Virus record (IMG/VR): IMGVR_UViG_3300008448_012223
Reading direction: 5' to 3' (one strand)
DNA length: 64,000 bases
DNA from: a virus
This document shows, piece after piece, positions 25,763 through 45,616 of the stretch. Each line of letters starts with the position of its first letter. Within the stretch, counting starts at the first letter, position 1. Both the position numbers and the translations under genes were made by a program. Below the pieces are notes generated by a model. It was not told where the DNA came from. It ran no database searches and saw only the letters and a program-made list of their open reading frames with translations.

Positions 25763-25969
25763 CTAATCGAATTGAAACAACCAGGGATTCCAGGTTAGTT
25801 CAGTATTATCATCTAACGTAACAACCACTCTGTTCTTATGGCCAGCGTAGCGGTGAGAAAGATTACCCTTCGTGTTGTAACTATAACCCGCTGACCTAGG
25901 GTACGTTGATTGATATGCTATATTAGTAACTACCTTATTATTAATCTCATCGCCTAGCCTGATGTGCAT
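25763..25969 (-). CDS. Hypothetical protein
   Basis: 68-aa ORF coupled to the radical SAM gene. Confidence 0.45.
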   Translation of the reverse strand: MHIRLGDEINNKVVTNIAYQSTYPRSAGYSYNTKGNLSHRYAGHKNRVVVTLDDNTELTWNPWLFQFD

Positions 25970-26928
25970 GGGAAGCCTGTCTGGAAGTAATCGATTAGTG
26001 AAGTAGAGTCGAATGACGTACGGTTATAACTACGACTAGTAGGAGCATACTGCTGCTTAACTGCATCAATATACATAGTAAACTGGAAGTCATCGCCCAT
26101 ATAGAAGCGGGCCCACCCCTCATCAGTGAATAAACGTCTGAGCTCTAACTGTTCGATAGCCAGGTTATCAAAGGAGAGATTACACTTACCTATAAGAGAG
26201 GGTAGGGAACGCCGCCACTGCGCTATGCCTGCATCTACCTCAGGGCTATGATAATCTATACCGAAGCCGAAGTTCTTATAGCCTAGTACGAGTACCTTAC
26301 TGGTTACAGCGCTGAGGCTAACCAACTCATCGATTATACTGACGGGATGGATACCAGCGATGATGTGATACACGATGTTATCTGAGAGACGCAGTACTGG
26401 TATCAGACTGCTATAGTTACTACTAGTGATTGAGATACCGAGGCCCCGCACTAACTCCTGACTTACTATGTCCTCTATTAGAGTAGCGTAGCGATGTAGA
26501 TGACCCTGGTTAACAGTAATGTTAGCTATAAGCCCGCGGGCCTTAAGTTCTACTAGGAAGCCCACTATATCAGGATGAGATAGTGGGTTACCCCCTCCAT
26601 TTGCTAACTCGACCCCAGCAGGTATATCACTAAGGACATCGAGTAACCGTGTTAGGTCAGCGTGTTTACCACTACGAGTAGAACTCTCATGGCAGTACCT
26701 ACATCCCATATCACAGTAGTCAGTGATCTTAATATCTATAGAGCAGGGATAGGCAGGGCGGGCCCCAACCACACTTGTAGTACGAACTAGGGTACCATCA
26801 GCATATAGAGTACACTCATAATCACCATTAATATAATGCGCTAACGCTATCGCTTCATTAAACCTATTCATAGTCATAGAATGACGGATAATCATCAGTA
26901 TTAATCCCCATGATCTCGCAAGCTTCAA
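25954..26928 (-). CDS. Radical SAM protein
   Basis: IDIKITDYCDMGCRYCHE (CxxxCxxC), GGGNPLSHP; start probably internal. Confidence 0.85.
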   Translation of the reverse strand: MKLARSWGLILMIIRHSMTMNRFNEAIALAHYINGDYECTLYADGTLVRTTSVVGARPAYPCSIDIKITDYCDMGCRYCHESSTRSGKHADLTRLLDVLSDIPAGVELANGGGNPLSHPDIVGFLVELKARGLIANITVNQGHLHRYATLIEDIVSQELVRGLGISITSSNYSSLIPVLRLSDNIVYHIIAGIHPVSIIDELVSLSAVTSKVLVLGYKNFGFGIDYHSPEVDAGIAQWRRSLPSLIGKCNLSFDNLAIEQLELRRLFTDEGWARFYMGDDFQFTMYIDAVKQQYAPTSRSYNRTSFDSTSLIDYFQTGFPCTSG

Positions 26929-27220
26929 CTAATTTATCTATCCCCCCGAACCATTTGGCGGTAACATTAGGATTGCTCAATAAACATCGGAGCTCTTCGA
27001 TGAGGCATTCACCTCTACGCTCTTTTGTGTAGGCTTCTGGAGAAGTATATAATTCGCATTCCCAATCTCCTACTTGACGGTGAGTATCAATATCAAACTC
27101 CTTGCCATCAACCACTATATACTTTCGCCCGACTGATTTAATAGTTCCCCATGTACCATCCTCGTGGGGAATTACTGCCCATACCCTGGCACCCTTTTTA
27201 ATAAAGTCTTTCGGCAACAT
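26864..27220 (-). CDS. Hypothetical protein
   Basis: 118-aa ORF with GAGGA upstream. Confidence 0.5.
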   Translation of the reverse strand: MLPKDFIKKGARVWAVIPHEDGTWGTIKSVGRKYIVVDGKEFDIDTHRQVGDWECELYTSPEAYTKERRGECLIEELRCLLSNPNVTAKWFGGIDKLVEACEIMGINTDDYPSFYDYE

Positions 27221-27269
27221 TTACTTTTCCTCTGGTAAATTAGTTTAGGCGAGCCCTAGCTAGTGATAT

Positions 27270-27764
27270 CTAATTGCCCTTGTAAAAGAAGTCGCTAGCA
27301 TACTCCATCACTCCCTTATTATCAATCACATAACTGTAATCATTATCACTACCGGTTAGGATAAAGCTATAGGGCGAGAATAGATAACGCATCATCATAT
27401 CCTTATTAGCTACAATAGCATTGAGGAAGCCGTTCAACTCGTTGGCGTGGTCCATGTAGCCGCCATTAAGACTTTTGTATTTGTCATATACTACATCCTC
27501 GGCAGTTACAGCAATACCCTCTGATAGCAGATAGAGTATCATGTCATAGGCGTCTTTCATTCTATCGTTAGCGGCGAAGCCCGTGTATAAATAACTGGCC
27601 TTGGCTGCTATAGAACTCAGGATACTAGTTTCAGAACCGAATTCGCCAATCTCGAAATGTATTAATTTAGGGATAGTAAGGCTAGTCTGACAGGGAATAG
27701 ATATACTATGGGTGCTCGAACTATTAGTTTCAAATACACCCTGACGGACTTGAATGCTAAGCAT
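27270..27764 (-). CDS. Conserved phage protein of the FETNSSSTHS family
   Basis: QVRQGVFETNSSSTHSI N-terminal motif; AGGAG upstream. Confidence 0.65.
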   Translation of the reverse strand: MLSIQVRQGVFETNSSSTHSISIPCQTSLTIPKLIHFEIGEFGSETSILSSIAAKASYLYTGFAANDRMKDAYDMILYLLSEGIAVTAEDVVYDKYKSLNGGYMDHANELNGFLNAIVANKDMMMRYLFSPYSFILTGSDNDYSYVIDNKGVMEYASDFFYKGN

Positions 27765-28943: not shown

Positions 28944-29273
28944 TTAGTCCCTTGCGCTTTTCCCCTCGGCCACATCTGCAAATGGAGTAATAGGAATGTG
29001 GCTATAAACTTCGGCATTCTTTGCCCGAGCTTGGCGGAGATCGTAGCCTGTTTGAAGATTCAGCCAAAACTGAGGACTGTTACCGAAATATCGTGACAGA
29101 CGCAAAGCTGTATCCGCAGTGATACTACGCTTACCCGCTAAAATCTCACCGATACGAGTTTGAGCTACGCTTAAATCTTTGCTCAGTCTGTAGGGGGTAA
29201 TATTGAGCGGTTCCAGAAAATCTAACTTGAGGATTTCACCGGGATGAATATTGGGTAAATGGTCGCTGTTCAT
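28944..29273 (-). CDS. higA: HigA-family antitoxin (orphan)
   Basis: NIHPGEILKLDFLEPLNITPYRLSKDL...ITADTALRLSRYFGNSPQFWLNLQ. Confidence 0.9.
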   Translation of the reverse strand: MNSDHLPNIHPGEILKLDFLEPLNITPYRLSKDLSVAQTRIGEILAGKRSITADTALRLSRYFGNSPQFWLNLQTGYDLRQARAKNAEVYSHIPITPFADVAEGKSARD

Positions 29274-29629: not shown

Positions 29630-30119
29630 TGAATAATCTCCTGTTAATATCAGATGATAGGAAAGCCTCTAACCAGACAGGGCGGGGCTCTATAAGATAA
29701 CAGGCCCGCGCTGCGATAAGAGGATGATAGAAGTAGGGTAAGAACTCTAGCTGAGCTAGAGCCTCTATATGCTGAGGTGTAGCTATACCCCTATGATCTA
29801 GTATACCCAGGGTAGGGTAGCGCTCGTGATATATATTTAGGTTATAGTCATGCAGATACTCAGTAGTATCTAGACAGTACCAGGCAGCGCCAGAGCGGGG
29901 CCGCCCCATATCAGGTAGGTAGCCTGTTATAATCGGCGGGCTTTCATTATCCTCACGTAGATACTCTATGGCACGCCGATACATACGCCACTCCTGGGCC
30001 CAGCCCGACTGTAGTGTTATAGTAACAGCACTATAGCGGCCATCAGCGTAACGCCCTACATAATAGGGGTATATCATACAATCGCGAGCAGGTATACTCA
30101 CGTGATAATTAGTCATCAC
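29619..30119 (-). CDS. Hypothetical protein
   Basis: 166-aa ORF, overlap with the primase stop. Confidence 0.5.
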   Translation of the reverse strand: MMTNYHVSIPARDCMIYPYYVGRYADGRYSAVTITLQSGWAQEWRMYRRAIEYLREDNESPPIITGYLPDMGRPRSGAAWYCLDTTEYLHDYNLNIYHERYPTLGILDHRGIATPQHIEALAQLEFLPYFYHPLIAARACYLIEPRPVWLEAFLSSDINRRLFNVC

Positions 30120-31336
30120 GATCCGAATAGTAGAGAGGCATATTCAAGGGGCCCTAATTGATTATCTACATAAGGAGCCAGTAGCCCTAAGGGGGAATGA
30201 GTAGCAGTCAATACCCGCAATATATCTACGTGATGACTAATGTCGGGCCCCCATTGAGCTAGTAAATCATCTACGAATAATATGCGGTTAGCATTGATAG
30301 TATCAGCAGCATTAACGCGAGGCTCTGCTACCAACCACTCATTAATATCTTTATAATCAGCAACCATATACGTCATAAGCTCAGCTAATGGTAAGTTAAC
30401 CTGTAGCTGAACTAGTTGAGGTATGATACGCACCCAGCTCTTATATACACCGGCATGAGTAGGATGATCATCGCTATACTTATCTGAGTCGAATATAAAT
30501 GTGATACGACGGAAGGGCTTGAACTTACTGGTGTGACATAATAGATACTCCAGACCCAATAGTCCCACTACAGGTAAACCACGACCTATTAGTGATGTGG
30601 CATCAGGCGGGCCCTCAACTATATATAGCTCGCGAGCTGGGTGCTTACTATACTCCTTAAGACAATGTTCTAGATAGAGATAGCGCTTACTATTAATAGC
30701 GGCCCGCGTATCCTTATAGCGGGGGGCCCTCTCACTACTACCTATATAGCGACCAACCATATGGACTAGATGGCCTCGTGTATCTCGTATAGGGAATATA
30801 ATGCGTTCCCTATAGTAATCCTCGCCGTCCTCCTTAATCAGACCCTCGCGGGCTAATGCCTCATGATCTATATCGAATTGACGTAGACCACTAGGAGGAG
30901 CATACCCTATACCAATGCTACGAGCTAGATCGAGGGACCAGCCCCGCCGCAGTATATAATCCTGAGCAGCAGGCGTAGTATCAAAATAATAATGATAGGC
31001 CTCTAGCGCGCTCTCTAGTACTATACTGCGAGCATCCATAACCTCGCGGGCCTGACGTATACCAGCGCGGGCCTCTAACTGCTGCATAGCCCCAGCATAA
31101 TCAAGCTTAGTATGCCAGCGCCAGGCATTGACTAGACCCATACCTGCGTTCAACTCACAACTAGTCCTCCAGCACTTCATATAGTGCGGATACACGCTCA
31201 GCTTACCGCGGCCCCCACAAGCAGGGCAATCATTAGTACCATGCCGTAGATTTAGTAGCTCTGGTATAGTTAGCCGCTCCATTATCAGTTGCTCATTCTC
31301 TCTCGTCACCGCTCTCCGTATATTGGATGAATGCAC
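30116..31336 (-). CDS. DnaG-type DNA primase
   Basis: Zn finger CPACGG...CWRTSC, RIIFPIRD, TOPRIM IVEGPPDA and IFDSD. Confidence 0.85.
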   Translation of the reverse strand: MHSSNIRRAVTRENEQLIMERLTIPELLNLRHGTNDCPACGGRGKLSVYPHYMKCWRTSCELNAGMGLVNAWRWHTKLDYAGAMQQLEARAGIRQAREVMDARSIVLESALEAYHYYFDTTPAAQDYILRRGWSLDLARSIGIGYAPPSGLRQFDIDHEALAREGLIKEDGEDYYRERIIFPIRDTRGHLVHMVGRYIGSSERAPRYKDTRAAINSKRYLYLEHCLKEYSKHPARELYIVEGPPDATSLIGRGLPVVGLLGLEYLLCHTSKFKPFRRITFIFDSDKYSDDHPTHAGVYKSWVRIIPQLVQLQVNLPLAELMTYMVADYKDINEWLVAEPRVNAADTINANRILFVDDLLAQWGPDISHHVDILRVLTATHSPLGLLAPYVDNQLGPLEYASLLFGS

Positions 31337-31681
31337 TATAATAACTAAGCTTAAACTTTAACACTAATACATATCGCCTGTTAATGGCAATATGCTCGAG
31401 ATAAGTGATGTCACTTACCCGTGGCCCGTTCCATAAGAATATCTCGGATAGTTTTTTCAACAGGTACCTTAATATACTACTACCGCCAACGTCTAGGGCC
31501 ACCCCACGTCATCCATACTACTGTTCTTAAGCGATACCTAACGAATTTCTAATTGACTAACATCAAAATCACCGCCATTTGGCAGAGTTTTCCCTGAAAA
31601 AAGATGCTGTTGCTTGCGAAGCCATGATATTAGATGATTGTGTTAATTTTAAACGCTTTAGTCTGAGTCCATATTTTAATT

Positions 31682-32172
31682 TCAATTAAATGTAAAAAGT
31701 TTGTCGATAAAACTTGATATAGTTTCTGCTATTTCCTCTGTTTTATCACGAATAAAGGTAATCTCTTCCTGTTTGTCAGAGATTCCAAAACTTGAGTAGT
31801 ATCCATCATCTGGATCATCATACGCTCTACATATAGCTATTTCTTTTATTTTTCCTGTTCTTAAATCAAATATCGTACCAGTTACTCTGGTTTTTGGTAT
31901 TAAGCTAAAGCTTGGTACAAAACCACAAAAAACCTTGACATGGGCTACCGTCTGACAATCTAAAAGAACCTTAGCATTACCTGTTAGGTAAATTTGTTGT
32001 TCAAACTTTAGTTCCCATTCTGACCAAAGAAAGTTTTTAAACGACCAACTGTTCCAATCAGAATTGTCGTTATATTCTTTGTGACAAAAAGCCGCAATTT
32101 TTTTAAGTATATCTATTTTTTTGGTCCTTCTATAGCTTTTTGCCTTTTAAAAAACTCTTCTGCTGTTGTCAT
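31682..32172 (-). pseudogene. Frameshifted (A7 run) paralog of the adjacent 32169-32615 gene
   Basis: MTTAEEFFKRQKAIEGPKK* then the -1 frame continues IDILKKIAAFCHKEY...FTFN*; not in the ORF track. Confidence 0.65.
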
Positions 32173-32615
32173 AGTGTCACCTCGGTTTGTATTTCAGTTT
32201 CGATAAATTCATAAATATCAATCATAATTCGTGTTCCTTTTTTACGCCATAGATTTAATTCTCCATGTTTAGCAGTCCCACTTTTCTTGAATGAGATTTT
32301 ACTGTTTTTTCTATCATTTATCCATACAAAAAAACTTCCTTCCCAATCTAAATTAGAAATAGTAGATCGACCTTCTATGTAATTTCTAAAATCGCTAGGT
32401 GAACCGTCACTACTATAAAAGTTGTTACTATTGATACTTATATCTATTTGTATTCCATTTATAGAATTAAGAATAGGGCGATACCCGTAAATCATGTCTT
32501 GAGTTCTGCCTAAAGATGTAAATGACCACTTTAGCTCTGGGTAAGTTTTTTGGCAGAAATTGAATATTTTTTGGGCTGTTTCTTGTTTGTTCATTATATG
32601 AAGATCAGAATCCAT
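32169..32615 (-). CDS. AT-rich hypothetical protein
   Basis: 148-aa ORF, QKIFNFCQKTY motif, ATGA overlap with the next gene. Confidence 0.55.
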   Translation of the reverse strand: MDSDLHIMNKQETAQKIFNFCQKTYPELKWSFTSLGRTQDMIYGYRPILNSINGIQIDISINSNNFYSSDGSPSDFRNYIEGRSTISNLDWEGSFFVWINDRKNSKISFKKSGTAKHGELNLWRKKGTRIMIDIYEFIETEIQTEVTL

Positions 32616-32647: not shown

Positions 32648-32812
32648 TTATGCAAAAAATTCCAGTCTGTAATAAAACAGGGCAAGTCTGAAAGAATTAC
32701 AATCATAAAACTTGCGTATTAAGTTGTCTGTTCCAATGTAGGGTTCAGGCATAAACATAGAGGCCTTCAGCTTATTGTGCAGAGATCAATCACTACAATT
32801 AATAGTCTTCAT
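32648..32812 (-). pseudogene. Array unit 40, Trp codon changed to TGA, no acidic tail
   Basis: MKTINCSD*SLHNKLKAS...FYYRLEFFA*. Confidence 0.55.
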
Positions 32813-32930
32813 CGAAATAATTGTATAGCATTCTATAGTAAAATTGATCTATAAGAGTAATAAGTATAAAGGCCTTGACCTTATTGTTGAGAGTCCAGTC
32901 GAAAATCCAATAGTTAGAAATAGTCTTCAT
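32799..32930 (-). CDS. Array unit 39 (43 aa)
   Basis: MKTISNYW...FYYRMLYNYFDEDY*. Confidence 0.6.
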   Translation of the reverse strand: MKTISNYWIFDWTLNNKVKAFILITLIDQFYYRMLYNYFDEDY

Positions 32931-33088
32931 TCAAACAAACCCTTATGATTCAATCTAGAGTAAAACGAACCGACATGATTCCTACTCATTAAATAAGACC
33001 GGGTTACTAAATAACTTGCAGGCTCAATAAGCATAGAGGCCTTAAGCTTATTGTGTAGAGACCAATCATTAATCATAATCATCTTCAT
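32927..33088 (-). CDS. Array unit 38 (53 aa, ATGA-coupled)
   Basis: MKMIMINDWSLHNKLKAS...FYSRLNHKGLFE*. Confidence 0.6.
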   Translation of the reverse strand: MKMIMINDWSLHNKLKASMLIEPASYLVTRSYLMSRNHVGSFYSRLNHKGLFE

Positions 33089-33267
33089 TGAAACTATCTT
33101 CATTGAAATAACCGTCTTTATGTATAATGTTATACTTACTCATTCTCATCTAGAATGTGTTAGACAATACACTTACCAGTCTATAGTAAAACTGGTCGAC
33201 AGAGGTAATAAGTATAGAGGCCTTCAGCTTATTGTGCAGAATCCAAATATTACAATTTAGTCTTCAT
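33069..33267 (-). pseudogene. Array unit 37, two frameshifts
   Basis: MKTKL*; homologous body and tail are in other frames. Confidence 0.55.
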
Positions 33268-33439
33268 CGAAATAATTGTATAGCAGTCTATAGTAAAATT
33301 GATCTATAAAAGTAATAAGTATAGAGGCCTTGAGCTTATTGTCGAGAGTCCAGTGGTAAAGCAAACTCAATTTGAAATAATCATTATTACACAGAACCCA
33401 ATTATTATATAAAATCCAATAAGTAGAAATTCTCTTCAT
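33257..33439 (-). CDS. Array unit 36
   Basis: MKRIST...FYYRLLYNYFDED*. Confidence 0.6.
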   Translation of the reverse strand: MKRISTYWILYNNWVLCNNDYFKLSLLYHWTLDNKLKASILITFIDQFYYRLLYNYFDED

Positions 33440-33603
33440 AAAAACAAACTCTTATAATTCAATCTAGAGTAAAACGAACCGACATAATACCTGCCCATTA
33501 AATAAGACTCGGTTACTAAGTAATTTGCCCCAACGGAAAACTCAATAAGCATAGAGGCCTCAAGCTTATTGTGCAAAGACCAATAATCATTAATCATCTT
33601 CAT
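33436..33603 (-). CDS. Array unit 35 (55 aa, ATGA-coupled)
   Basis: MKMINDYWSLHNKLEAS...FYSRLNYKSLFL*. Confidence 0.6.
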   Translation of the reverse strand: MKMINDYWSLHNKLEASMLIEFSVGANYLVTESYLMGRYYVGSFYSRLNYKSLFL

Positions 33604-33868
33604 CTAAATAACCGTCCTCATATTCATCGAATTGCCCATCCTCAAGATAATAATCGCCCTCATCTAGAATATCATCCTTATCTAGGATGTTTTCTAACAT
33701 ATTTACCAGTCTACAGTAAAACCGGAAGATAGAGCCGCAACACTCGCTTAGTTTAGGAGTATAAATCTCGAGACCCATCTCTTCATAATAATGAAACAAG
33801 CGCAAGGCATTGAGATAATCATTATTCAAAATCCAAGGTAACAGACAATCGTTAGAAATATTCTTCAT
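33590..33868 (-). CDS. Array unit 34 (expanded acidic tail)
   Basis: MKNISND...DKDDILDEGDYYLEDGQFDEYEDGYLDEDD*. Confidence 0.65.
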   Translation of the reverse strand: MKNISNDCLLPWILNNDYLNALRLFHYYEEMGLEIYTPKLSECCGSIFRFYCRLVNMLENILDKDDILDEGDYYLEDGQFDEYEDGYLDEDD

Positions 33869-34046
33869 TGAAGTAATCGCTCTCATCTAGAGCGTTATAT
33901 AATCTAGAGTAAAACAAACCGATGTAGTACCTGCTTATTAAATAAAACCTAGGCACTAAGCCGGTTGCCCTAGCGAAAGGCTTAATAAGCATAGAGGCTC
34001 TAAGGTTATTGTGTAGAGTCCACTCGTCACATATAATAGTCTTCAT
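33852..34046 (-). CDS. Array unit 33
   Basis: MKTIIC...DESDYFNEEYF*. Confidence 0.65.
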   Translation of the reverse strand: MKTIICDEWTLHNNLRASMLIKPFARATGLVPRFYLISRYYIGLFYSRLYNALDESDYFNEEYF

Positions 34047-34251
34047 AAAAACATACTCCTAGCCAGTTACCCAATCTGAAGTAAAACAAAGATGTCGAAG
34101 CAGACACCCAAAAAATACTGTAATGCATAGCAAGGTTAAAATAATTATGATTATAATACTTTCTTACATTTATATCAGTGGAAGGCTCTCTACTAGATAT
34201 AGATGCCATAAGCTTATTATTAAGCATAGGCCAATAATCAATCATCTTCAT
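34027..34251 (-). CDS. Array unit 32
   Basis: MKMIDYW...FYEDYYM*. Confidence 0.6.
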   Translation of the reverse strand: MKMIDYWPMLNNKLMASISSREPSTDINVRKYYNHNYFNLAMHYSIFWVSASTSLFYFRLGNWLGVCFYEDYYM

Positions 34252-34459
34252 CGAAATAACCACCCTCATCTAGAACGTTATATAACATATTTGCCAGTCT
34301 ATGATAAAACCTGGCGGGCCCTCTATATACAATAAAGATGAAGCTATAGTATAAACTTTCACCATTTGCTAATTTTAGCTTGTCAGTAATAGTAAGTACA
34401 CCCCCTTTATTGCTATGAATATAATGACAAAACAGGTTGTTACAATTAACCATCTTCAT
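34238..34459 (-). CDS. Array unit 31
   Basis: MKMVNC...DEGGYFDEDD*. Confidence 0.65.
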   Translation of the reverse strand: MKMVNCNNLFCHYIHSNKGGVLTITDKLKLANGESLYYSFIFIVYRGPARFYHRLANMLYNVLDEGGYFDEDD

Positions 34460-34658
34460 TGAAGTAGTCATCCTCATTTAGAATATCATTATCATCTAGA
34501 GCGTTATATATAAAAGCCACTAGTCTATAGTAAAACTCGCCGGTAGGGTTAATATGTGTGTGGCCCTTCAACTTATCACACACATTCCAGTAGTAAAATA
34601 AGGTAATGTCATACAAACAATCGTTAGAAATATTCTTTATTGAAGTAATCACTCTCAT
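34446..34658 (-). CDS. Array unit 30 (upstream ATG available; usual ATG mutated to ATA)
   Basis: MRVITSIKNISND...EDDYFNEDG*. Confidence 0.6.
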   Translation of the reverse strand: MRVITSIKNISNDCLYDITLFYYWNVCDKLKGHTHINPTGEFYYRLVAFIYNALDDNDILNEDDYFNEDG

Positions 34659-34812
34659 CTAGAGCGTTATATATAAAAACCACTAGTCTATAGTAAAACA
34701 AGTTGATAGCGTTAATAGGTATAGAGGCTTTATGCTTATTATACACATTCCAATTGTACAGAATCAAGTTATAAAACAAAGCAAGCCCGAGATCATTATC
34801 AATCATCTTCAT
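34624..34812 (-). CDS. Array unit 29
   Basis: MKMIDND...DESDYFNKEYF*. Confidence 0.65.
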   Translation of the reverse strand: MKMIDNDLGLALFYNLILYNWNVYNKHKASIPINAINLFYYRLVVFIYNALDESDYFNKEYF

Positions 34813-34972
34813 AGAGTGTATACTTATATAGAATATTGTATATCACAGCTGTTAGTTTATAGTAAAACCAGTCGATAGAGCACCTGCTAAATTTAGGAAT
34901 ATGAGTCTCGATGGTCACATCCTCATAATAATAAAACAAGTAATTAAGCCTGTTACAACTAATCCATCTCAT
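34799..34972 (-). CDS. Array unit 28
   Basis: MRWISC...LYEDD*. Confidence 0.65.
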   Translation of the reverse strand: MRWISCNRLNYLFYYYEDVTIETHIPKFSRCSIDWFYYKLTAVIYNILYKYTLYEDD

Positions 34973-35198
34973 TGAAATAACCGTCCTCATCTAGAATGCT
35001 ATATAACACATCTTCTAATCTATGATGAAACAGATTGATAGAACCATGGAACCTGTCTAATTCAGGTATATAAGTTATAAGCCACATACCCTCATAACAT
35101 ATTAATAATCCGTGATGGTCAGCTGGCAGATCAGTAATAGATATAGGTATATTCAACTTATTACGTGGGGCTCAATTGTTACAATTAATTATCTTCAT
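34959..35198 (-). pseudogene. Array unit 27, Trp codon changed to TGA
   Basis: MKIINCNN*APRNKLNIP... stays in frame to ...DEDGYFNEMD*. Confidence 0.6.
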
Positions 35199-35352
35199 CG
35201 AAATAACCGTTCTCATCTAGAATGTTATATAACTCATCTCCTATATAAAACAGGTTGATAGAACCATGGTACCTGAATTAGTCAGGTACAGGAGTTGTAA
35301 AGACACATACCCTCATACAATAAAACAGGGCGTCACAATTAACCATCTTCAT
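35185..35352 (-). pseudogene. Array unit 26, internal TAA
   Basis: MKMVNCDAL...VPD* then in-frame ...YNILDENGYFDEDN*. Confidence 0.6.
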
Positions 35353-35512
35353 TGAAATAATCATCCTCATCTAGAATGTTATATAACTCATCTCCTAATC
35401 TATGATAAAACAGGTTGATAGAACCATGGAACCTGTCTAATTCAGGTATATAAGTTATAAGCCATATACCCTCATGACAATAAAACGGGGCGTCACAATT
35501 AATCACCTTCAT
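35339..35512 (-). CDS. Array unit 25
   Basis: MKVINC...LDEDDYFNEDG*. Confidence 0.65.
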   Translation of the reverse strand: MKVINCDAPFYCHEGIWLITYIPELDRFHGSINLFYHRLGDELYNILDEDDYFNEDG

Positions 35513-35714
35513 CGAAATAATCGTCCTCATCTAGAATGCTATATAAATGTTCTAATCTATGATAAAACAGGTTGATAGAGCCAGAGAACTTACTTAATTC
35601 AAGAGTATAGGTATCGAGATCCATGTTCTCATAATAAAACAAGGCAATATAATAATCGAGCTTAACTAATAAGTCACTTATCTGAATGTGCTCGTCACAG
35701 TTAATCACTCTCAT
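35499..35714 (-). CDS. Array unit 24
   Basis: MRVINC...LDEDDYFDEGD*. Confidence 0.65.
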   Translation of the reverse strand: MRVINCDEHIQISDLLVKLDYYIALFYYENMDLDTYTLELSKFSGSINLFYHRLEHLYSILDEDDYFDEGD

Positions 35715-35904
35715 TGAAGTAATCGTCCTCTCTATTAAGAAAGCTATATATTACAAGTTCTACTAATCTATAATAAAAAAGTCTTCCAGGACTATAAGCA
35801 AAATACAATTTGATTAATAATTTACGTAGGTCAACGGGCAGATCAGTAATAGGTATATTCAAGTTATTACGCGGAGCCCAGTCATTACAATTAATCATCT
35901 TCAT
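35701..35904 (-). CDS. Array unit 23
   Basis: MKMINC...EDDYFNESD*. Confidence 0.65.
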   Translation of the reverse strand: MKMINCNDWAPRNNLNIPITDLPVDLRKLLIKLYFAYSPGRLFYYRLVELVIYSFLNREDDYFNESD

Positions 35905-36148
35905 CGAAATAATCCCCCTCCCCTAGAAAGTCATATAACAAACATGCTAGTTTATAATAAAACAAGTCGATAGGAACATGTAACTTGTCCAATTCAGGGA
36001 TATAGGCCCCGAGACCCATGCTTTCATGGTAGTAACGATAGAACCATAGATAGTATAGATTATCACCATTTGGTAAAATCGGCGGGTCAATATATATATT
36101 CAGTTTACTACTATGAGGCGCCCAATCGTTACAATTAATCATCTTCAT
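35891..36148 (-). CDS. Array unit 22
   Basis: MKMINC...GDYFDEDD*. Confidence 0.65.
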   Translation of the reverse strand: MKMINCNDWAPHSSKLNIYIDPPILPNGDNLYYLWFYRYYHESMGLGAYIPELDKLHVPIDLFYYKLACLLYDFLGEGDYFDEDD

Positions 36149-36323
36149 AGAAATAATGGTAGGTTATAGTAGGCTCAGATAGGTTATGGTAAACCCAAGC
36201 GACTCCTCTGACATAAAAGTTATCGTATAAACTATTATGGTTTGCTATCAACGGGTTAGTAATAGGTGTAGATACACCTAACGTATTACGTGGGGCCCAG
36301 TCATTACAGTTAATTATCTTCAT
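36135..36323 (-). CDS. Array unit 21
   Basis: MKIINC...YFYEDD*. Confidence 0.65.
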   Translation of the reverse strand: MKIINCNDWAPRNTLGVSTPITNPLIANHNSLYDNFYVRGVAWVYHNLSEPTITYHYFYEDD

Positions 36324-36327
36324 ATAA

Positions 36328-36528
36328 TTAATTGTCCTCATCTAGAATGTTATACAACACTACTCCCGCTAGTCTATGGTAAAACCTGGCGGGCCCCCCA
36401 GCGTTATAAGTATGAAAGTTATAGTTATAGAAACTGTAGTATAAACTATCACTGTCTACTAAAATCGACGGGTCAGTAATATATTTATTCAGTTTACTAC
36501 GTGAAGGCCAACCGTTAATCATATTCAT
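36328..36528 (-). CDS. Array unit 20
   Basis: MNMINGW...YNILDEDN*. Confidence 0.65.
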   Translation of the reverse strand: MNMINGWPSRSKLNKYITDPSILVDSDSLYYSFYNYNFHTYNAGGPARFYHRLAGVVLYNILDEDN

Positions 36529-36703
36529 AAAAATATAACAATCTATGGTAAAACCAAGCAGGCCCTCCACCATGATAAAGATAGAAGTTATAGAATAACT
36601 TATTATTATCTGCTATTGGAAGAACAATAGTAGGTACAGGTGCATTCATACGGAGCCCATTTAAATTACGCGGAGTCCAACCATTACAATCAATCTTCTT
36701 CAT
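36515..36703 (-). CDS. Array unit 19
   Basis: MKKIDC...FYHRL..FYEYD*. Confidence 0.65.
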   Translation of the reverse strand: MKKIDCNGWTPRNLNGLRMNAPVPTIVLPIADNNKLFYNFYLYHGGGPAWFYHRLLYFYEYD

Positions 36704-36707
36704 ATAA

Positions 36708-36902
36708 TTAATTGTCCTCATCTAGAATGTTATATGATGCTACTCTTTCCAGTATATAATAAAACAGCACCCCATCATAAAAGCTATAGTATAAATTATC
36801 AACGCTCGCTAGAGGCGGATTAGTAATAGGTATGTATGAAGTCCACGCATGCGGGTCTCTTCTATTACGAGGAGCCCAATTGTCAGAATTAATCTTCTTC
36901 AT
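36708..36902 (-). CDS. Array unit 18
   Basis: MKKINSD...YNILDEDN*. Confidence 0.65.
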   Translation of the reverse strand: MKKINSDNWAPRNRRDPHAWTSYIPITNPPLASVDNLYYSFYDGVLFYYILERVASYNILDEDN

Positions 36903-37090
36903 AGAAATAATGGTAGGGCCACTATAGTATAAAACATAGCAAGCCCCCCATCATCATTATAAAGATAAAAGCTATAGTATAAATTATCAACGCTCACTAG
37001 AGGTGGATTAGTGATAGTGAGTACGTATGGAGCCACATGCGGGTCTCTTCTATTACGAGGAACCCAATTGTCAGAATTAATCTTCTTCAT
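36899..37090 (-). CDS. Array unit 17, altered tail, ATGA-coupled
   Basis: MKKINSD...LPLFL*. Confidence 0.55.
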   Translation of the reverse strand: MKKINSDNWVPRNRRDPHVAPYVLTITNPPLVSVDNLYYSFYLYNDDGGLAMFYTIVALPLFL

Positions 37091-37286
37091 CGAAATAATC
37101 ATTCTCATATAGAACGTTATATAATACTATCCCCGACAGTCTATAGTAAAGTATAGCAAGTCCTCCAGAATTATAAAGATAGAAGCTATAGTATAAATTA
37201 TTGATATTTGCTACTGGCGGGGCAGTGATAGGTACAGGTACATTCCACTCATACGGGGCCCAGCAATTTGGATTAATTGTTTTCAT
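37077..37286 (-). CDS. Array unit 16
   Basis: MKTINPNC...ENDYFDEED*. Confidence 0.65.
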   Translation of the reverse strand: MKTINPNCWAPYEWNVPVPITAPPVANINNLYYSFYLYNSGGLAILYYRLSGIVLYNVLYENDYFDEED

Positions 37287-37325
37287 AGAGATAGTTATCC
37301 TGACCTAAAATATCAATATACCAGT

Positions 37326-37517
37326 CTATGTTAAAGCGCGCTGATAAGAGCGCAGTTTATAGGCCAGTCTATAGTAAAATTGGAAGATAGAGCCACAGCA
37401 CTTGTTTAATTCAGGAGTATAAATCTCGAGACCCAGCTCTTCATAATAATAAAACAAGTACAAAGCATTGAAATAATCATTATTCAAAATCCAATTGTTA
37501 CAACTAATCGCTCTCAT
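37326..37517 (-). CDS. Array unit 15, tail frameshifted
   Basis: ...YQRALT*; DWYIDILGQDNYLYENN is out of frame. Confidence 0.55.
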   Translation of the reverse strand: MRAISCNNWILNNDYFNALYLFYYYEELGLEIYTPELNKCCGSIFQFYYRLAYKLRSYQRALT

Positions 37518-37677
37518 CGAAATAATCATCCTCATATAGAATATCGTATATCACAGTTCTTAGTCTATAGTAAAACCCGCCGGTAGAGATAATAAGTATA
37601 CGGGCCTTTAGCTTATTCTTGATAGTCCAGTTGTAAAACAAAGCAAGTTTGAAAACATTACAATTAATCATCTTCAT
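37504..37677 (-). CDS. Array unit 14 (57 aa, below track cutoff)
   Basis: MKMINCNVFKLAL...FYYRL...YEDDYFDESD*. Confidence 0.65.
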   Translation of the reverse strand: MKMINCNVFKLALFYNWTIKNKLKARILIISTGGFYYRLRTVIYDILYEDDYFDESD

Positions 37678-37825
37678 AGAATATATATTTATCTACTATG
37701 TGTATATACAGTCTATAGTAAAATCGGTCGACAGCATAAAACCTTAATTCAGGAGTATAGGTGAAACCCGCACGCTCACAATAATAAAAAAAGTAATTAA
37801 GCTTGTTACAACTAATCGCTCTCAT
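37664..37825 (-). pseudogene. Array unit 13, frameshifted
   Basis: MRAISC...TPELR then out of frame; FYYRL and tail are in another frame. Confidence 0.6.
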
Positions 37826-38039
37826 TGAAGTAATTGCCCCCCAAGCTTAAGGCCTCATTCAGAAAGCCATATATCACAAATTCTCCCAGTCTATAATAAA
37901 ACCAGGCGAGTCTCCCAGGACTATAAGCAAAATACAATTTGCTTAATAATACCTGTAGGTCAACAGGCGGGTCAGTAATAGGTATAGGTATATTCAACTG
38001 ATTACACGGGGCCCAATTATTACAACTAATCATCTTCAT
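37812..38039 (-). CDS. Array unit 12
   Basis: MKMISC...NYFNESD*. Confidence 0.65.
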   Translation of the reverse strand: MKMISCNNWAPCNQLNIPIPITDPPVDLQVLLSKLYFAYSPGRLAWFYYRLGEFVIYGFLNEALSLGGNYFNESD

Positions 38040-38202
38040 CGAAATAATCATCCCCATATAGAATGTCGTATATCACAGCTGTTAGTTTATAGTGAAGCCG
38101 GTCGATAGAGCACCTGCTAAATTCAGGAATATGACTCTCGATGGTCACATCCTCATAATAAAAAAACAAGTACTTAAGCTTATTACAACTAATCGCTCTC
38201 AT
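38026..38202 (-). CDS. Array unit 11
   Basis: MRAISC...DDYFDEDD*. Confidence 0.65.
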   Translation of the reverse strand: MRAISCNKLKYLFFYYEDVTIESHIPEFSRCSIDRLHYKLTAVIYDILYGDDYFDEDD

Positions 38203-38210
38203 TGAAGTAA

Positions 38211-38393
38211 TCACCCCCTATTCAGAAAGCCGTATATCCCAAATTCTTCCATTCTATAATAAAACCAGGCGACTTCTCGACTATAAGCAAAATACACCTG
38301 TAGGTCAACAGGCGGGTCAGTAATAGGTATAGATATCATAGGTAGATTTAACTTATGACGTGGGGTCCAATTGTTACAATTAATTATCTTCAT
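38211..38393 (-). CDS. Array unit 10, tail truncated by +1 in a G5 run
   Basis: ...FLNRG*; DYFNESD is out of frame. Confidence 0.55.
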   Translation of the reverse strand: MKIINCNNWTPRHKLNLPMISIPITDPPVDLQVYFAYSREVAWFYYRMEEFGIYGFLNRG

Positions 38394-38562
38394 CGAAATA
38401 ATCGTCCTCATCTAGAGTGTTATAATAAAACACGCTTACCAGTCTATAATAAAACCGGTCGATAGTTACAAGACCTGTGTTATCGTAATAATAAGTTCTA
38501 ATAGGCCTAGGTATATTCAACTTATTACGTGGGGCCCATTTGTCACTATCATCTATCTTCAT
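38380..38562 (-). CDS. Array unit 9
   Basis: MKIDDS...LDEDDYFDEDN*. Confidence 0.65.
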   Translation of the reverse strand: MKIDDSDKWAPRNKLNIPRPIRTYYYDNTGLVTIDRFYYRLVSVFYYNTLDEDDYFDEDN

Positions 38563-38785
38563 AGAAATTGTCCTTAGCTAACAATGTCAGTCTATAATAA
38601 AACAACTTGATAGAAGCATAAAACTTATTTAATTCAGGTAGATAGACCCAGAGACCCACACTCATACTTTCGTAGTGGTAATGATAAAAGCTATAGTATA
38701 AACTACCACTGTTTGCTAAAACCGGCGGATCAGCAGCAGGTATATTCAACTTATTAAGTGAAGGCCAGTCGTTAATAATCTTCAT
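38549..38785 (-). CDS. Array unit 8
   Basis: MKIINDW...FYYRL...DNFYEDR*. Confidence 0.65.
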   Translation of the reverse strand: MKIINDWPSLNKLNIPAADPPVLANSGSLYYSFYHYHYESMSVGLWVYLPELNKFYASIKLFYYRLTLLAKDNFYEDR

Positions 38786-38989
38786 AGAAATAATTCCCCT
38801 CCTCTAGAAAGTCATATAACAAAAAATACTACCCCACGACAGACTATAGTAAAATATAGCAAGTCCTTTAGAATTATAAAGATAGAAGCTATAGTATAAA
38901 TTATTGATATTTGCTACTGGCGGAGCGGTGATAAATACAGGTAAACCCCATTTATACAGAGCCCAGCAATTTGGATTAATTATTTTCAT
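38772..38989 (-). pseudogene. Array unit 7, frameshifted near a T6 run
   Basis: Stops at 38804; acidic tail LEEGNYFYEDY is in another frame. Confidence 0.6.
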
Positions 38990-39254
38990 TGAGATAGTTA
39001 TCCTCACCTAAAATATCAATGTACCAGTCTATGTTAGAGCGCTGATAAAGCAGCAATTTACAATAAAACCAGTCGACAGAAACATATAACCTGTCTAATT
39101 CAAGAGTATAGGCCCCAATTATACTTTCATAGAACCATGTATAATATAAATTATCGCCGTTTGCTAGAATCGCTGGGTCAGTAATAGATTTAGATATAGA
39201 CATATCTGGACCCCAATTACTACTAAGCCAACCGTTACAATTAATAATCTTCAT
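38976..39254 (-). CDS. Array unit 6
   Basis: MKIINC...GEDNYLNENN*. Confidence 0.65.
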   Translation of the reverse strand: MKIINCNGWLSSNWGPDMSISKSITDPAILANGDNLYYTWFYESIIGAYTLELDRLYVSVDWFYCKLLLYQRSNIDWYIDILGEDNYLNENN

Positions 39255-39447
39255 AGAGATAATCATCCTCATCTAATGATAGTTTACGGTAAAACCAAGC
39301 AAGCCCTTGATTATTATAAGTATGAAACTTATAGTATAAACTATAACCATCTGTTATTAGAGGATCAGTAATAGGTATAAGTTCACCCCAATATGGAGCC
39401 CATCTAGTATTGCGAAGAGCCCAACCATTATAATTAATCATCTTCAT
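39241..39447 (-). CDS. Array unit 5
   Basis: MKMINY...DEDDYLYEDY*. Confidence 0.65.
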   Translation of the reverse strand: MKMINYNGWALRNTRWAPYWGELIPITDPLITDGYSLYYKFHTYNNQGLAWFYRKLSLDEDDYLYEDY

Positions 39448-39652
39448 AGAAGTAATTGTCCTCATCTAGAATGTTATATACATTTCCTGCTAGTCTATCG
39501 TAAAACTTGGCGGGCCCCCCAGCATTATAAACGTAGAAGCTATAATATAAAATATCACTGTTTGTTAAAATTGGCAGGTTAGTAATAGGTATAGGTGCGT
39601 CCCATAAATAATGATTATGGGGTGCCCAACCATTACAATTAATCTTCTTCAT
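39434..39652 (-). CDS. Array unit 4
   Basis: MKKINC...NILDEDNYFYEDD*. Confidence 0.65.
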   Translation of the reverse strand: MKKINCNGWAPHNHYLWDAPIPITNLPILTNSDILYYSFYVYNAGGPAKFYDRLAGNVYNILDEDNYFYEDD

Positions 39653-39845
39653 AGAGATAATCATTCTCATCTGGCGATAGTTTACGATAAAACCAAGCAA
39701 GCCCTTCATTATTATAAGTATGAAACTTATAGTATAAACTATAACCACTTGTTATCAGAGGATTAGTAATAGGTACAAGTTCACCCCAATATGGAGCCCA
39801 TCTAGTATTACGAGGAGCCCAACCATTAGAATTAATAACCTTCAT
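39639..39845 (-). CDS. Array unit 3
   Basis: MKVINS...DYLYEED*; 14-nt overlap. Confidence 0.65.
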   Translation of the reverse strand: MKVINSNGWAPRNTRWAPYWGELVPITNPLITSGYSLYYKFHTYNNEGLAWFYRKLSPDENDYLYEED

Positions 39846-40068
39846 AGAAATAGTCACCCTCATATAGAATATTATATACATTTCCTGCCAGTCTATCGTA
39901 AAACTTGGAGGGCCCCCCAACATTATAACCGTAGAAGCTATAGTATACAGTATCACCGTTTGCTAAAATTGGCGGGTTAGTAATAGGTATAGGCGCGTCC
40001 CATTCATAATACGGCGCCCCATAATCGTTATGGGGCGCCCAATAGTTTGGATTAATCTTTTTCAACAA
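39832..40068 (-). CDS. Array unit 2
   Basis: TTG start with AAGGA; ...FYDRL...YFYEGY*. Confidence 0.65.
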   Translation of the reverse strand: MLKKINPNYWAPHNDYGAPYYEWDAPIPITNPPILANGDTVYYSFYGYNVGGPSKFYDRLAGNVYNILYEGDYFYEGY

Positions 40069-40087
40069 ATGTTTCCTTTTGGTACTA

Positions 40088-40297
40088 TTAATTATCTTTA
40101 TAGAAATTGTCCTTAGCGAACAGTGTCAGTATATAATAAAACATCCCAGCATTATAAACGTAGAACCTATAGTATAAAGTATCACCGTTTGCTATTGGCG
40201 GGTTAGTAATAGGTATAGGTGCGTCCCATAGATAATCATTATGAGGCGCCCCATAATGATTATGGGGCGCCCAATAATTTGTACTAATCTCTTTCAT
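40088..40297 (-). CDS. Array unit 1
   Basis: SD GAGGAG upstream; MKEISTNYWAPH...DNFYKDN*. Confidence 0.7.
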   Translation of the reverse strand: MKEISTNYWAPHNHYGAPHNDYLWDAPIPITNPPIANGDTLYYRFYVYNAGMFYYILTLFAKDNFYKDN

Positions 40298-40312: not shown

Positions 40313-40699
40313 TTACTGGACGTAAAACGACTTTTTCTTATAAGCAACCACCTTTAAATACACCTCTAGCAAAGCCTCAATGAGAGACTCTTGTCGAGAG
40401 ACAAAACAACGCGAAGTCTCGTAAATATTGGGGTTCACACTAACTGTCACAGTATAACTATTAGGTAATCGTTGAATAACCCAACCATAACCAGAGCTAT
40501 CTAGACGCATTTGGAAAAAATAGATCAACTTAGCAAGCGACCCCCGATCTAACAAAAAGGGATCAGGATCAGAGGTAGAGATAGAAATACAATCACCCCA
40601 AGATAGTTGGATAAAAAAGGTATTCCGAAAAGTACCCCACCCATACCGACAAATGTGAGGCTCAGACTTGACCCAATCATGCAAAAATTCAGTAAGCAT
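40313..40699 (-). CDS. Hypothetical protein directly upstream of the array
   Basis: 128-aa ORF, GAGGG upstream. Confidence 0.55.
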   Translation of the reverse strand: MLTEFLHDWVKSEPHICRYGWGTFRNTFFIQLSWGDCISISTSDPDPFLLDRGSLAKLIYFFQMRLDSSGYGWVIQRLPNSYTVTVSVNPNIYETSRCFVSRQESLIEALLEVYLKVVAYKKKSFYVQ

Positions 40700-40787: not shown

Positions 40788-41114
40788 TTAAAATTGTTGA
40801 ATAATAACGCCCCCCTCAAATTTAATTACTGTTGTTTTGTCTTCTAGATAAGTAATAGCAGATGACTCTACATCATCCTCATCCTCATCATCTTCTGGTA
40901 TAAAGCCGTAATGTTCGGCCGCTTCTAGGGCGCTAGAGTATTCTGAATACTCGCACCGGATAGCGACTCTATCAAATTCGATAGATTCATCAAGGCTATC
41001 CTCTAAATCTTCTAGATACCCAACTAAAGCCTCAGCGCCCGACCATGACCAATCAGCATTATCATCCTCTTTGAGTAGCTTGATAGCTTCATCGGTGCTT
41101 ATATTTTGATGCAT
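40788..41114 (-). CDS. Highly acidic small protein, possible DNA mimic / ArdA-like antirestriction
   Basis: WSWSGAEALVGYLEDLED...IEFDRVAIRCEYSEY...EDDEDEDD. Confidence 0.45.
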   Translation of the reverse strand: MHQNISTDEAIKLLKEDDNADWSWSGAEALVGYLEDLEDSLDESIEFDRVAIRCEYSEYSSALEAAEHYGFIPEDDEDEDDVESSAITYLEDKTTVIKFEGGVIIQQF

Positions 41115-41265: not shown

Positions 41266-41550
41266 TCACCCATTGTTATCAAATAGATTTCTGTAGGCCT
41301 CGTATACGGCATCAGGTGCCTCCTCGTCATTGTATTGTTGAGCCGACTTGAATGTAGATAAGATGCTCAATAGATTAGGGCGGTAGTTAGGGATAATACA
41401 ATAACCACCATTAATCCATCTAATACACGCGAGACGACGGGTGCCATGAAACCAGCATAAGATCTCATCGCCAAGGGCCGTATGAGATTGATATGGTTCG
41501 CGGAAGTCAGATATACGCCCCCGCAAGTATTTAAGTAAATCTAACATCAT
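41266..41550 (-). CDS. Hypothetical protein
   Basis: 94-aa ORF with ATGA overlap to the helicase. Confidence 0.5.
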   Translation of the reverse strand: MMLDLLKYLRGRISDFREPYQSHTALGDEILCWFHGTRRLACIRWINGGYCIIPNYRPNLLSILSTFKSAQQYNDEEAPDAVYEAYRNLFDNNG

Positions 41551-42725
41551 GATTTAGTACCTAACCGATTATAGAATTTAAGGATAGAGGGCTCTATATA
41601 GCAACTATCACAGAAGGCGGATCGTGTACCTATCAGGCGGAGGCCGCTATAGTGACGTACACGACTAAGAATAGTATAGAGGCCCCCGCTGAGCCAACGT
41701 AAATTACTGAGACGAGCCTGTACGTTATTAAGCGTGAGCCCCTGACTACGATGGACAGTAAGGGCATAGCCCAGTCTAACGGGTAAGTAGTGGCAGCGGC
41801 CCAATAGTTTGTTAGTGCCGAGCTCTTTATTATCTCGTGTCACGTATTCAATGATAGTCTCCTGACCGGTACGTTCTACTGTCACCAGTATAGTATTAGT
41901 CATGAGCTCCTTGACTATGGCGATATCGCCATTAGCGTATGTAGGTAGTCTATTACGAAGTAGAATAACGCGCGCGCCTTTCCTTAGCTCTACTGATTCA
42001 GGTATTTGGCCCCACTCAGGAGCGGTCCTCCCCCCCTTCGGTATAACGTAATTCTTAGTATAGAGGCGACTAGGCCCTTCTAGTTGTGCTAGGTGCAGGG
42101 CGTTATATCTATCTACACTATCATTAGTAGGCAGGATAGTAGTACCTGCGTAGTTATCTTCGAGCTGATTGACAAACTCTACATTATCTATGAACCAATC
42201 TACTGCTTCGTGAGGCCGCCCTTCTCTTACGCTAGTCAGCGCCTGTATAAAGCCGGGGTCATTCTGGCGCCTGACCTCTCGTAAGTACTGTATATCGAAG
42301 CTCTGTAGGCAGTCTGTTTGATAGACTGGCGTGCTAGTGACCTTTTTATCTGGTACTAGTGGTAACTGACAGAAGTCTCCCACGAGTAGGAGATTCATAT
42401 TTATGTTACTCTTCTCCATTACGTGATGGATAATAGTTAGTTGAGGGCCATGTAACATACTGATCTCGTCTATGACTAGAGTATCAAATGCATTAGATAT
42501 AGCCTGTAGCTGAGTGGTCAGCTTTCCACTAGAAGCGGAGCGTAATAGACTAGTAGTGTCGAAGAACTGGAGGGCCGCGTGAATAGTAGTACCACCTGCA
42601 TTAATAGCGCTCACGCCGGTACTACTAGTGATGAGGGCCTTACTCAAACTCTGTATGTATGTTGTCTTACCACTCCCTGCTGGACCCAGCAGCATCTGAT
42701 AGGGGCCGTTGAACGTTATCTGCAT
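41547..42725 (-). CDS. PIF1/RecD-like SF1B helicase
   Basis: GPAGSGKT, VIDEISML, VGDFCQLP, VRRQND, ALTVHRSQGLT, YTILSRV. Confidence 0.9.
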   Translation of the reverse strand: MQITFNGPYQMLLGPAGSGKTTYIQSLSKALITSSTGVSAINAGGTTIHAALQFFDTTSLLRSASSGKLTTQLQAISNAFDTLVIDEISMLHGPQLTIIHHVMEKSNINMNLLLVGDFCQLPLVPDKKVTSTPVYQTDCLQSFDIQYLREVRRQNDPGFIQALTSVREGRPHEAVDWFIDNVEFVNQLEDNYAGTTILPTNDSVDRYNALHLAQLEGPSRLYTKNYVIPKGGRTAPEWGQIPESVELRKGARVILLRNRLPTYANGDIAIVKELMTNTILVTVERTGQETIIEYVTRDNKELGTNKLLGRCHYLPVRLGYALTVHRSQGLTLNNVQARLSNLRWLSGGLYTILSRVRHYSGLRLIGTRSAFCDSCYIEPSILKFYNRLGTKS

Positions 42726-44048: not shown

Positions 44049-44279
44049 CTAATCTAACTCAGATAGTAAGGCTTTAATTGTATTCAATGCAATACCCTCT
44101 GGTGTATATTTTGGTACAGATGATATAGCTAGTAGCTCTTCAAGCATCTGACTAAAAAATTTTAGCTGTTCTTCTTTATCAGAAAAAGGAAAAACTGTAT
44201 TACCGACTACATTCGTTAGTTTATCTGACATCAATGAAATTTGAGGATTGCGTGCGTAATAGTCAATTTTTTGGTTCAT
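44049..44279 (-). CDS. AT-rich hypothetical protein
   Basis: 76-aa ORF between the direct repeats. Confidence 0.5.
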   Translation of the reverse strand: MNQKIDYYARNPQISLMSDKLTNVVGNTVFPFSDKEEQLKFFSQMLEELLAISSVPKYTPEGIALNTIKALLSELD

Positions 44280-45533: not shown

Positions 45534-45616
45534 TGGGTTAAGCTGGATTTGCACCAGCGTGGAATTAAATCTACAGATTTACAGTCTGTCGCCTTCGACT
45601 ACTCGGCCACTAACCC
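45534..45616 (-). tRNA. tRNA-Tyr (GTA), CCA not encoded
   Basis: GGGTTAG/TTAACCC acceptor, ACAGA-CTGTAAA-TCTGT anticodon arm, long variable arm, GCTGG-TGCAAAT-CCAGC T arm. Confidence 0.9.

Follow-up and report, generated by a model that had tools for sequence, protein, structure and literature searches.

A chain of overlapping, recombining micro-genes in a Ma-LMM01-like Microcystis phage and its possible role in counter-defence

The 64 000-nucleotide stretch of virus DNA recorded in IMG/VR as IMGVR_UViG_3300008448_012223 (the window in what follows) comes from a Fukuivirus, a Ma-LMM01-like Microcystis phage. Its minus strand carries an array of 40 short head-to-tail genes (units), whose products share the motif FYYRL. 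The array is very probably a coding, translationally coupled and recombining set of paralogues. Its products may be counter-defence peptides that bind host proteins and are docked through FYYRL, a reading to which a probability of about 0.45 was given. A first-pass annotation made from the letters of the window had described 40 head-to-tail units on the minus strand, about 31 of which read through, a strong Shine-Dalgarno (SD) sequence before unit 1 and no adjacent reverse transcriptase, Cas or recombinase gene. The recount from 40297 to 32648 again gave 40 units, the SD sequence was present, none of these genes was seen, and the number of read-through units was right within one (30 were found).

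Start-to-start periods range from 118 to 265 bp, and 32 of the 39 are 1 mod 3 (binomial P = 5e-10 against the 1/3 expected, shared ancestry being ignored). An intact unit needs such a period because the next start is overlapped by 14 nt in the +1 frame. This junction is dual-coding: one frame holds the last codons of unit n, and the other the MKxIN start of unit n+1. Among the 30 units that read through to the tail, 24 have the exact 14-nt overlap. Units 7, 10, 15, 17, 35 and 38 are frameshifted only past the FYYRL-like motif, and units 26, 27, 37 and 40 are broken early. Most units after the first are preceded by AGGA or TAAGGA about 11 nt upstream. A single transcript could be read by termination-reinitiation, with each stop overlapping the next start. 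The junction (-19 to +16 around each start) is also a degenerate 18-bp tandem repeat (14/18 consensus matches), from which a second in-frame ATG arises six codons upstream in about half of the units. The G+C content is about 34% in the array and about 46% in the remainder of the window. The array is not an assembly artefact, because three other assemblies (L058, L059 and L060) carry it with 100% identity and homologues occur in all nine Fukuivirus records. L058 lacks 120 bp at window positions 31964-31843 and is otherwise identical to the window.

Coding was tested on 263 distinct units cut from 12 arrays, with the junctions removed; 211 were in phase, in 42 different lengths. The array is coding, because interiors were open in 205 of the 211 in-phase units and only 13 were expected after shuffling. 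In the five other frames, 0-12 were open. Changes creating a stop between close unit pairs numbered 7, against 32 expected. The earlier suggestion that frame is preserved beyond neutral expectation was thus borne out. Among 67 out-of-phase or truncated units, 48 still contain an FYYRL-like motif (random indels would give 27%), and in 40 the stop falls between -45 and +25 nt from the next start (32% expected).

The array genes of Ma-LMM01 are expressed at log2 FPKM (fragments per kilobase per million mapped fragments) of 0-2.8 at 1 h, 7.6-9.8 at 3 h and 7.3-9.7 at 6 h (PMC5780444, Table S3), values in which cross-mapping between paralogues is possible. They are classed as 'middle' genes and stand far above the near-silent gp037-041 block (PMC5780444). 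A TTTATA/TATAAT motif was predicted as a middle promoter ahead of gp150 and gp156 (PMC5780444). In the window, a sigma70-like pair (TTTATA, 16 nt, TATAAT) lies within the coding core of about eight units (36900-40200, minus strand).

Substitutions were counted along a spanning tree of close unit pairs, which is not a recombination-aware phylogeny, and units from different genomes are non-independent. The ratio of nonsynonymous to synonymous rates (omega) of the array was 0.88 with the fitted substitution spectrum and 1.0 (bootstrap 0.90-1.16) with a transition/transversion ratio (kappa) of 4; seven flanking genes gave 0.08-0.51. Between reciprocal best pairs, array divergence was 0.068 at second positions and 0.062 at fourfold sites, against 0.023 and 0.112 in the seven flanking genes. 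Protein change in the array is thus about three times as fast as in the neighbours, with no faster mutation of the DNA. Trp (omega 0.19), Pro (0.42) and Tyr (0.55) are constrained, and Lys, His, Val and Ser are fast (1.4-1.7). The first Tyr of FYYRL had 0 replacements and 4 silent changes, and the Leu 1 replacement and 10 silent changes with four Leu codons in use; such motif-anchored counts are partly circular, the expected values being up to twofold too high for defining residues. The Phe codon of the motif is always TTT. Constraint is limited to Met-Lys, a Trp, prolines, aromatics and FY(Y)RL, and the rest changes near the silent rate. FYYRL is a real invariant of the units, and the first-pass description of a conserved FYYRL within a diversified phage-encoded repertoire was upheld. 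A mean omega near 1 with constrained anchors fits either some positive selection elsewhere or simple relaxation.

Intact units are 43-92 amino acids long and probably for the most part without fixed structure. The median net charge of the array units is -3, and the array encodes 12% Tyr (4% elsewhere), 5% Phe and 9% Asn, with 286 Tyr codons. Hydrophobic residues stand at positions 0, 1, 4, 7, 8 and 12 of the FYYRL motif, which fits an amphipathic helix. The best 19-residue Kyte-Doolittle mean (median 0.74) is too low for transmembrane helices. The ESM Atlas pointed to a carbohydrate-binding module (score 0.87, 108/256 features); sequence searches of Pfam and the PDB did not bear this lead out. 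In an AlphaFold 3 survey of Ma-LMM01, gp137-157, the counterparts of the units, are not among the annotated models (10.1101/2024.12.13.628456).

The C-terminal acidic tail had been taken as constant at first. It holds 0-8 acidic residues in the last 12 positions, and 5-8 in about half of the intact units. In every array read to its end, the terminal unit stops a few residues past FYYRL without an acidic tail. The unrelated lead gene that precedes unit 1, conserved in all Fukuivirus arrays, has the C-terminus AFDERD only where it overlaps unit 1 by 14 nt (L002, L006, L015, L016, L017 and L045). The only fixed tail residue is the Glu that the following start codon imposes (5 replacements, 15 expected); at the Asp positions of the tail, changes are 2-2.6 times as frequent as expected. 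The AGGA ribosome site, about 11 nt ahead of the next start, lies in the upstream acidic codons. Tailless variants are retained across genomes, such as that of unit 7 in L006, L008 and L014. The tail arises mostly as a side effect of the 14-nt overlap together with the AGGA site, and adds solubility at most. The terminal unit, the lead gene, the Asp turnover and the late frameshifts show that the tail is not the conserved element; what is conserved runs from Met to the end of FYYRL, together with the coupling. For annotation, this is a caution that gene overlap alone can create a conserved-looking acidic tail.

The comparison of array content across related genomes, proposed in the first-pass annotation, was run, and both copy number and order vary. 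Arrays span 3.5-10 kb in every Fukuivirus genome examined and hold from about 22 junctions (MaMV-DC) to 49 (L054); the window has 40 units and the isolates about 22-28. The units that match those of the window best occupy different ranks from one genome to another, and the cores are mosaics of a few blocks. L056 and L057, which come from different samples, have flanks 99.98% identical to the window and lack 2525 bp. The crossover lies at a 5-bp exact match entering the FYYRL-coding DNA of units 2 and 15; 13 units are removed and an out-of-frame chimera is left. Recombination alone does not keep frame, so the 80% in-phase share must come from later selection. A recent 398-bp tandem duplication involves units 3-4 and unit 5 onward. 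The intact fraction drops toward the 3' end, from 51/58 to 26/47. As read from these sequences, unequal recombination at the junction and in FYYRL DNA deletes, duplicates and splices units, and each lineage has its own set of about 22-49. Ma-LMM01 encodes a RecA (gp008), which would suffice for this recombination. A diversity-generating retroelement was ruled out: reverse transcriptase (PF00078) had no match in the complete Ma-LMM01 and MaMV-DL01 genomes, in a search whose positive control worked, nor among the open reading frames (ORFs) of the window, and the substitution spectrum (A-G 357, C-T 319, C-G 65, A-C 65, G-T 65, A-T 61) has no adenine bias. In two records, a terminal-type unit occurs twice and flanks inserted foreign genes (L054, 13057-14700; L061, 16737-19150). 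The inserts include a UbiD fragment and an AAA ATPase fragment, and the array end seems to capture cargo.

The window was assigned by its terminase (11001-12779), 97% identical to those of Ma-LMM01, MaMV-DC, -DH01, -DL01/02 and -CH01/02. The array region is 72-77% identical, piecewise, to the hypothetical genes gp137-gp157 of Ma-LMM01 (NC_008562.1) and their MaMV counterparts, and five of six units scanned matched phrog_4393, a family catalogued without function (E = 1e-28 to 1.6e-4). By sequence, the units are thus phrog_4393 and gp137-gp157, and the first-pass annotation, in which no named family was recognised, has to be revised. The window and the isolates share the gene order helicase - gp159 - gp158 - lead gene - array - primase, and the 14-nt overlaps are likewise present in the arrays of the seven isolates named above. 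In three complete genomes, phrog_4393-type matches in a profile search were confined to the array. No array match was found outside Fukuivirus among 50 697 phage records, and the family was not found in three Microcystis genomes. A profile search over 1.84 billion representatives gave 73 members of the family, one spurious 4357-aa match and nothing beyond the family. Longer or fused forms of the units were not seen, which is weak evidence. Neither comparable arrays nor a description of phrog_4393 as an array was found in the literature, in a search that did not cover the 2008 paper on the Ma-LMM01 genome. An architecture in which a dual-coding junction links dozens of mosaic paralogues is unusual.

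If the units are counter-defence peptides, FYYRL and the following residues would form a short amphipathic helix docking on a host protein, and the choice of host allele or paralogous target would be tuned by the N-terminal two thirds, which are variable. The likeliest purpose would be to counter, during middle expression, the rich and variable defence arsenal of Microcystis, which has the largest number of defence genes among the prokaryotes studied (PMC5780444). A more elaborate form, possible though doubtful, is a self-diversifying, antibody-like library in which a fixed FYYRL docking helix is combined with recombinable variable modules in one coupled chain, with no reverse transcriptase or site-specific recombinase. 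Several points weigh against the counter-defence reading. An omega of about 1 equally fits relaxed selection, and any excess over 1 is no more than suggestive. The units are expressed as middle rather than early genes, at levels below those of the flanking replication genes (log2 FPKM 7.3-9.8 against 9.5-11; PMC5780444). The units have no match in Pfam, NCBIfam, PADLOC or PDB sequences, and the model of unit 16 (50-sequence alignment; helices 28-38 and 44-60) has low confidence, with a predicted local distance difference test (pLDDT) score of 50. The 13 units lost from the L056/L057 genome are dispensable there, and that genome was found in several samples. The neighbouring genes of the array described below sit in a general hyperplastic region, and the ArdA call is weak (E 0.52, Z 4.2).

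The same observations suit a translated, near-neutral 'ORFanage', in which recombination sizes the array and selection only keeps ribosomes moving or products harmless. This is possible but unlikely. The omega values, the dispensable units, the decay of the intact fraction toward the 3' end and the stops of frameshifted or truncated units near the next start all agree with it, and blocks of ORFans in cyanophage S-PM2 can be costly and can be lost (PMC4503421). However, Trp, Pro, Tyr and FYYRL are constrained while silent change is free, and 3.5-10 kb of the array is retained in every Fukuivirus genome examined although deletion is easy. It is quite unlikely that the peptides have a collective material role, co-assembling via FYYRL into a polymer, condensate or membrane-surface coat whose copy number outweighs any sequence, for instance in shielding replicating DNA or in superinfection exclusion. 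Equal amounts suggested by translational coupling, the composition rich in Tyr, Phe and Asn, the site between helicase and primase with middle-gene timing and the lack of an individual fold in the unit model would fit such a role, but the units are not hydrophobic enough for transmembrane helices and a structural polymer has no obvious need for diverging paralogues.

The acidic tails of about half of the intact units, internally duplicated in units 30 and 34, could suggest a DNA mimic or a mimic of the tail of single-stranded DNA-binding protein (SSB) that carries a variable binder, as first proposed. We consider this very unlikely, since the overlap and the SD sequence largely dictate the tail, its Asp positions turn over fast, the last unit and other retained variants do without it, the net charge is small and no terminal Phe is present. 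That the array is a non-coding DNA or RNA repeat (a mimic of the CRISPR repeat, a promoter or restriction-site decoy, or an origin) is highly improbable, because the frame and stop statistics require translation. The junction bears a loose likeness, first noticed by eye, to both ends of the type I-D repeat of Microcystis, itself verified; sites resembling promoters number 73 against 48+-7, and the motif Phe codon does not vary; but the best type I-D resemblance reaches 13.5 bits (P about 0.17 against shuffled repeats), no Rfam entry matches, CRISPR included, and no RNA folding signal was seen (mean z -0.3 in cores, +0.1 in junctions). A CRISPR array or RNA anti-CRISPR is not supported either, given the same P value, and the 'spacer' cores are homologous coding sequence. 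The library of precursors resembling ribosomally synthesized and post-translationally modified peptides (RiPPs), with constant follower and variable core, that the first-pass annotation offered as an alternative is hardly credible. The units are short and variable and a radical S-adenosylmethionine (SAM) gene lies 5.7 kb downstream. Against this, there is no constant leader or follower, no column is invariant in 30 units, the tail is dispensable, no precursor family matches, and no peptidase or transporter was seen nearby; the radical SAM protein falls far below every maturase cut-off.

Coordinates of the array and of its neighbours are given in the table. The gp158-like protein also occurs in siphophage Mic1 and in some Microcystis assemblies. 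Its model (pLDDT 91) had ArdA (2w82) as top Foldseek PDB match, which is weak (E 0.52, template modelling score 0.40-0.43), and VIA likewise gave a weak match to ArdA (Z 4.2, root-mean-square deviation 4.3, 86 residues aligned). An ArdA call for gp158 was also made in a preprint (10.1101/2024.12.13.628456). The protein is a candidate anti-restriction protein, with a modelled fold that is weakly ArdA-like. The tRNA-Tyr gene lies upstream of the array in all eight relatives scanned. In phage T6, tRNA-Tyr is a counter-defence gene directed against a tRNA-Tyr-cleaving defence (PMC13096335); by analogy, the gene may act in this way or may serve the Tyr-rich array. The orphan HigA gene, 3.4 kb downstream of the array, is present in L051-L053, L056 and L057 and absent from Ma-LMM01, MaMV-DC, MaMV-DL01 and others; it is a candidate anti-toxin-antitoxin gene. 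Together, the ArdA-like gene, tRNA-Tyr and HigA hint at a counter-defence region, without proving it. The radical SAM protein scored below every NCBIfam cut-off, with only weak viperin-like and MoaA-like scores over the core domain. The gap between array and primase (31400-32615, minus strand) is a variable slot: the window has two AT-rich genes there (148 and 163 aa), Ma-LMM01 a transposase pair, MaMV-DL01 three other genes and MaMV-DC none. In a small sample of 442 Microcystis type I-D spacers, no match above 17 nt to any array was found. The sole good match in the window is at 44156-44190 (32/35), and in L002, L005 and L016 another spacer has a match in genes immediately downstream of the array.

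Table. Position of the array, its units and neighbouring genes in the window
Feature	Position	Strand	Remarks
tRNA-Tyr(GTA)	45534..45616	-	sole tRNA in window, upstream of array
RecD-like helicase	41547..42725	-	gp160 equivalent, upstream landmark
108-aa acidic protein	40788..41114	-	phrog_9974, gp158 equivalent, two genes upstream of array
Lead gene	40313..40699	-	128 aa
Whole array	32648..40297	-	40 head-to-tail paralogous micro-genes; phrog_4393, gp137-157 equivalent
Unit 1	40088..40297	-	69 aa, intact, strong SD
Unit 2	39832..40068	-	78 aa, TTG start, intact; left crossover of L056/L057 deletion about 39909-39905
Units 3-6	38976..39845	-	68, 72, 68, 92 aa; intact, 14-nt overlaps
Unit 7	38804..38989	-	61 aa, frameshift past FYYRL-like motif, no acidic tail
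Units 8-9	38380..38785	-	78, 60 aa; intact
Unit 10	38211..38393	-	60 aa, late frameshift
Units 11-14	37504..38202	-	58, 75, 53, 57 aa; intact
Unit 15	37326..37517	-	63 aa, late frameshift; right deletion crossover about 37384-37380
Unit 16	37077..37286	-	69 aa, intact; structure model made
Unit 17	36899..37090	-	63 aa, late frameshift, terminates in 4-nt stop/start overlap
Units 18-25	35339..36902	-	64, 62, 66, 62, 85, 67, 71, 57 aa; in phase; 18 and 20 stop 6 codons early
Units 26-27	34959..35352	-	broken: 26, early frameshift (24 aa); 27, stop at conserved Trp codon
Units 28-34	33590..34972	-	57, 62, 64, 73, 74, 64, 92 aa; intact; unit 30 start codon ATA
Units 35-36	33257..33603	-	35, 55 aa, late frameshift; 36, 60 aa, intact
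Units 37-39	32799..33270	-	37, early frameshift, broken; 38, 53 aa, late frameshift; 39, 43 aa, intact
Unit 40	32648..32812	-	terminal; stop at Trp codon here, intact in relatives
DNA primase	30116..31336	-	gp134 equivalent, downstream landmark
Orphan HigA-family antitoxin	28944..29273	-	TIGR02607, 108 bits (cut-off 47.7); no toxin gene seen
Radical SAM gene	25954-26928	-	with 164-aa neighbour, pair spans 25954-27764

The main lytic viruses in culture for toxic Microcystis blooms are Ma-LMM01-like phages, whose host ranges are narrow and unexplained. They invest 3.5-10 kb in a chain of which every lineage has a different version. Were the units counter-defence binders, the array would offer a set of probes into the immunity of cyanobacteria and would be a candidate determinant of host range; natural variants with a deletion (the loss of 13 units) exist for comparison. 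If the array were antibody-like, it would give each lineage dozens of binders against strain-variable Microcystis defence proteins, an undescribed type of counter-defence repertoire.

DNA-mimic anti-restriction proteins such as Ocr and ArdA have a conserved, strongly acidic surface on a stable fold, which the units lack (charge -3, pLDDT 50). The SSB tail has a conserved acidic tip ending in Phe, whereas the units end in Asp, Asn or Tyr and their last positions are among the fastest changing. The T4 internal-protein locus, the paralogue families of jumbo phages and the multigene families of African swine fever virus are lineage-specific, fast-evolving paralogues thought to act on the host; the array proteins are much smaller, chained by overlaps and without detectable fold. 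The T4-type hyperplastic regions with PeSL cassettes are similar in that small non-essential ORFs in a variable region are shuffled by repeat recombination (PMC2839356). There, however, unrelated ORFs are separated by a non-coding repeat, a promoter-terminator cassette, while here the repeat is the gene itself, with a two-frame junction. Ten terminator-like sites were found in 11 kb, not one per unit, and promoter-like sites lie inside coding cores. The amplification of tifA in T4 (PMC9391042) and of the tRNA-Tyr/segB region in T6 (PMC13096335) resembles the array in the gain and loss of tandem copies by recombination in a lytic myovirus. It differs in that those copies are transient and identical, with a shown counter-defence function, whereas the array holds a stable set of 22-49 diverged mosaic paralogues of putative function. 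By analogy with these systems, the array would work like a phage hyperplastic multigene region or a stabilised gene accordion.

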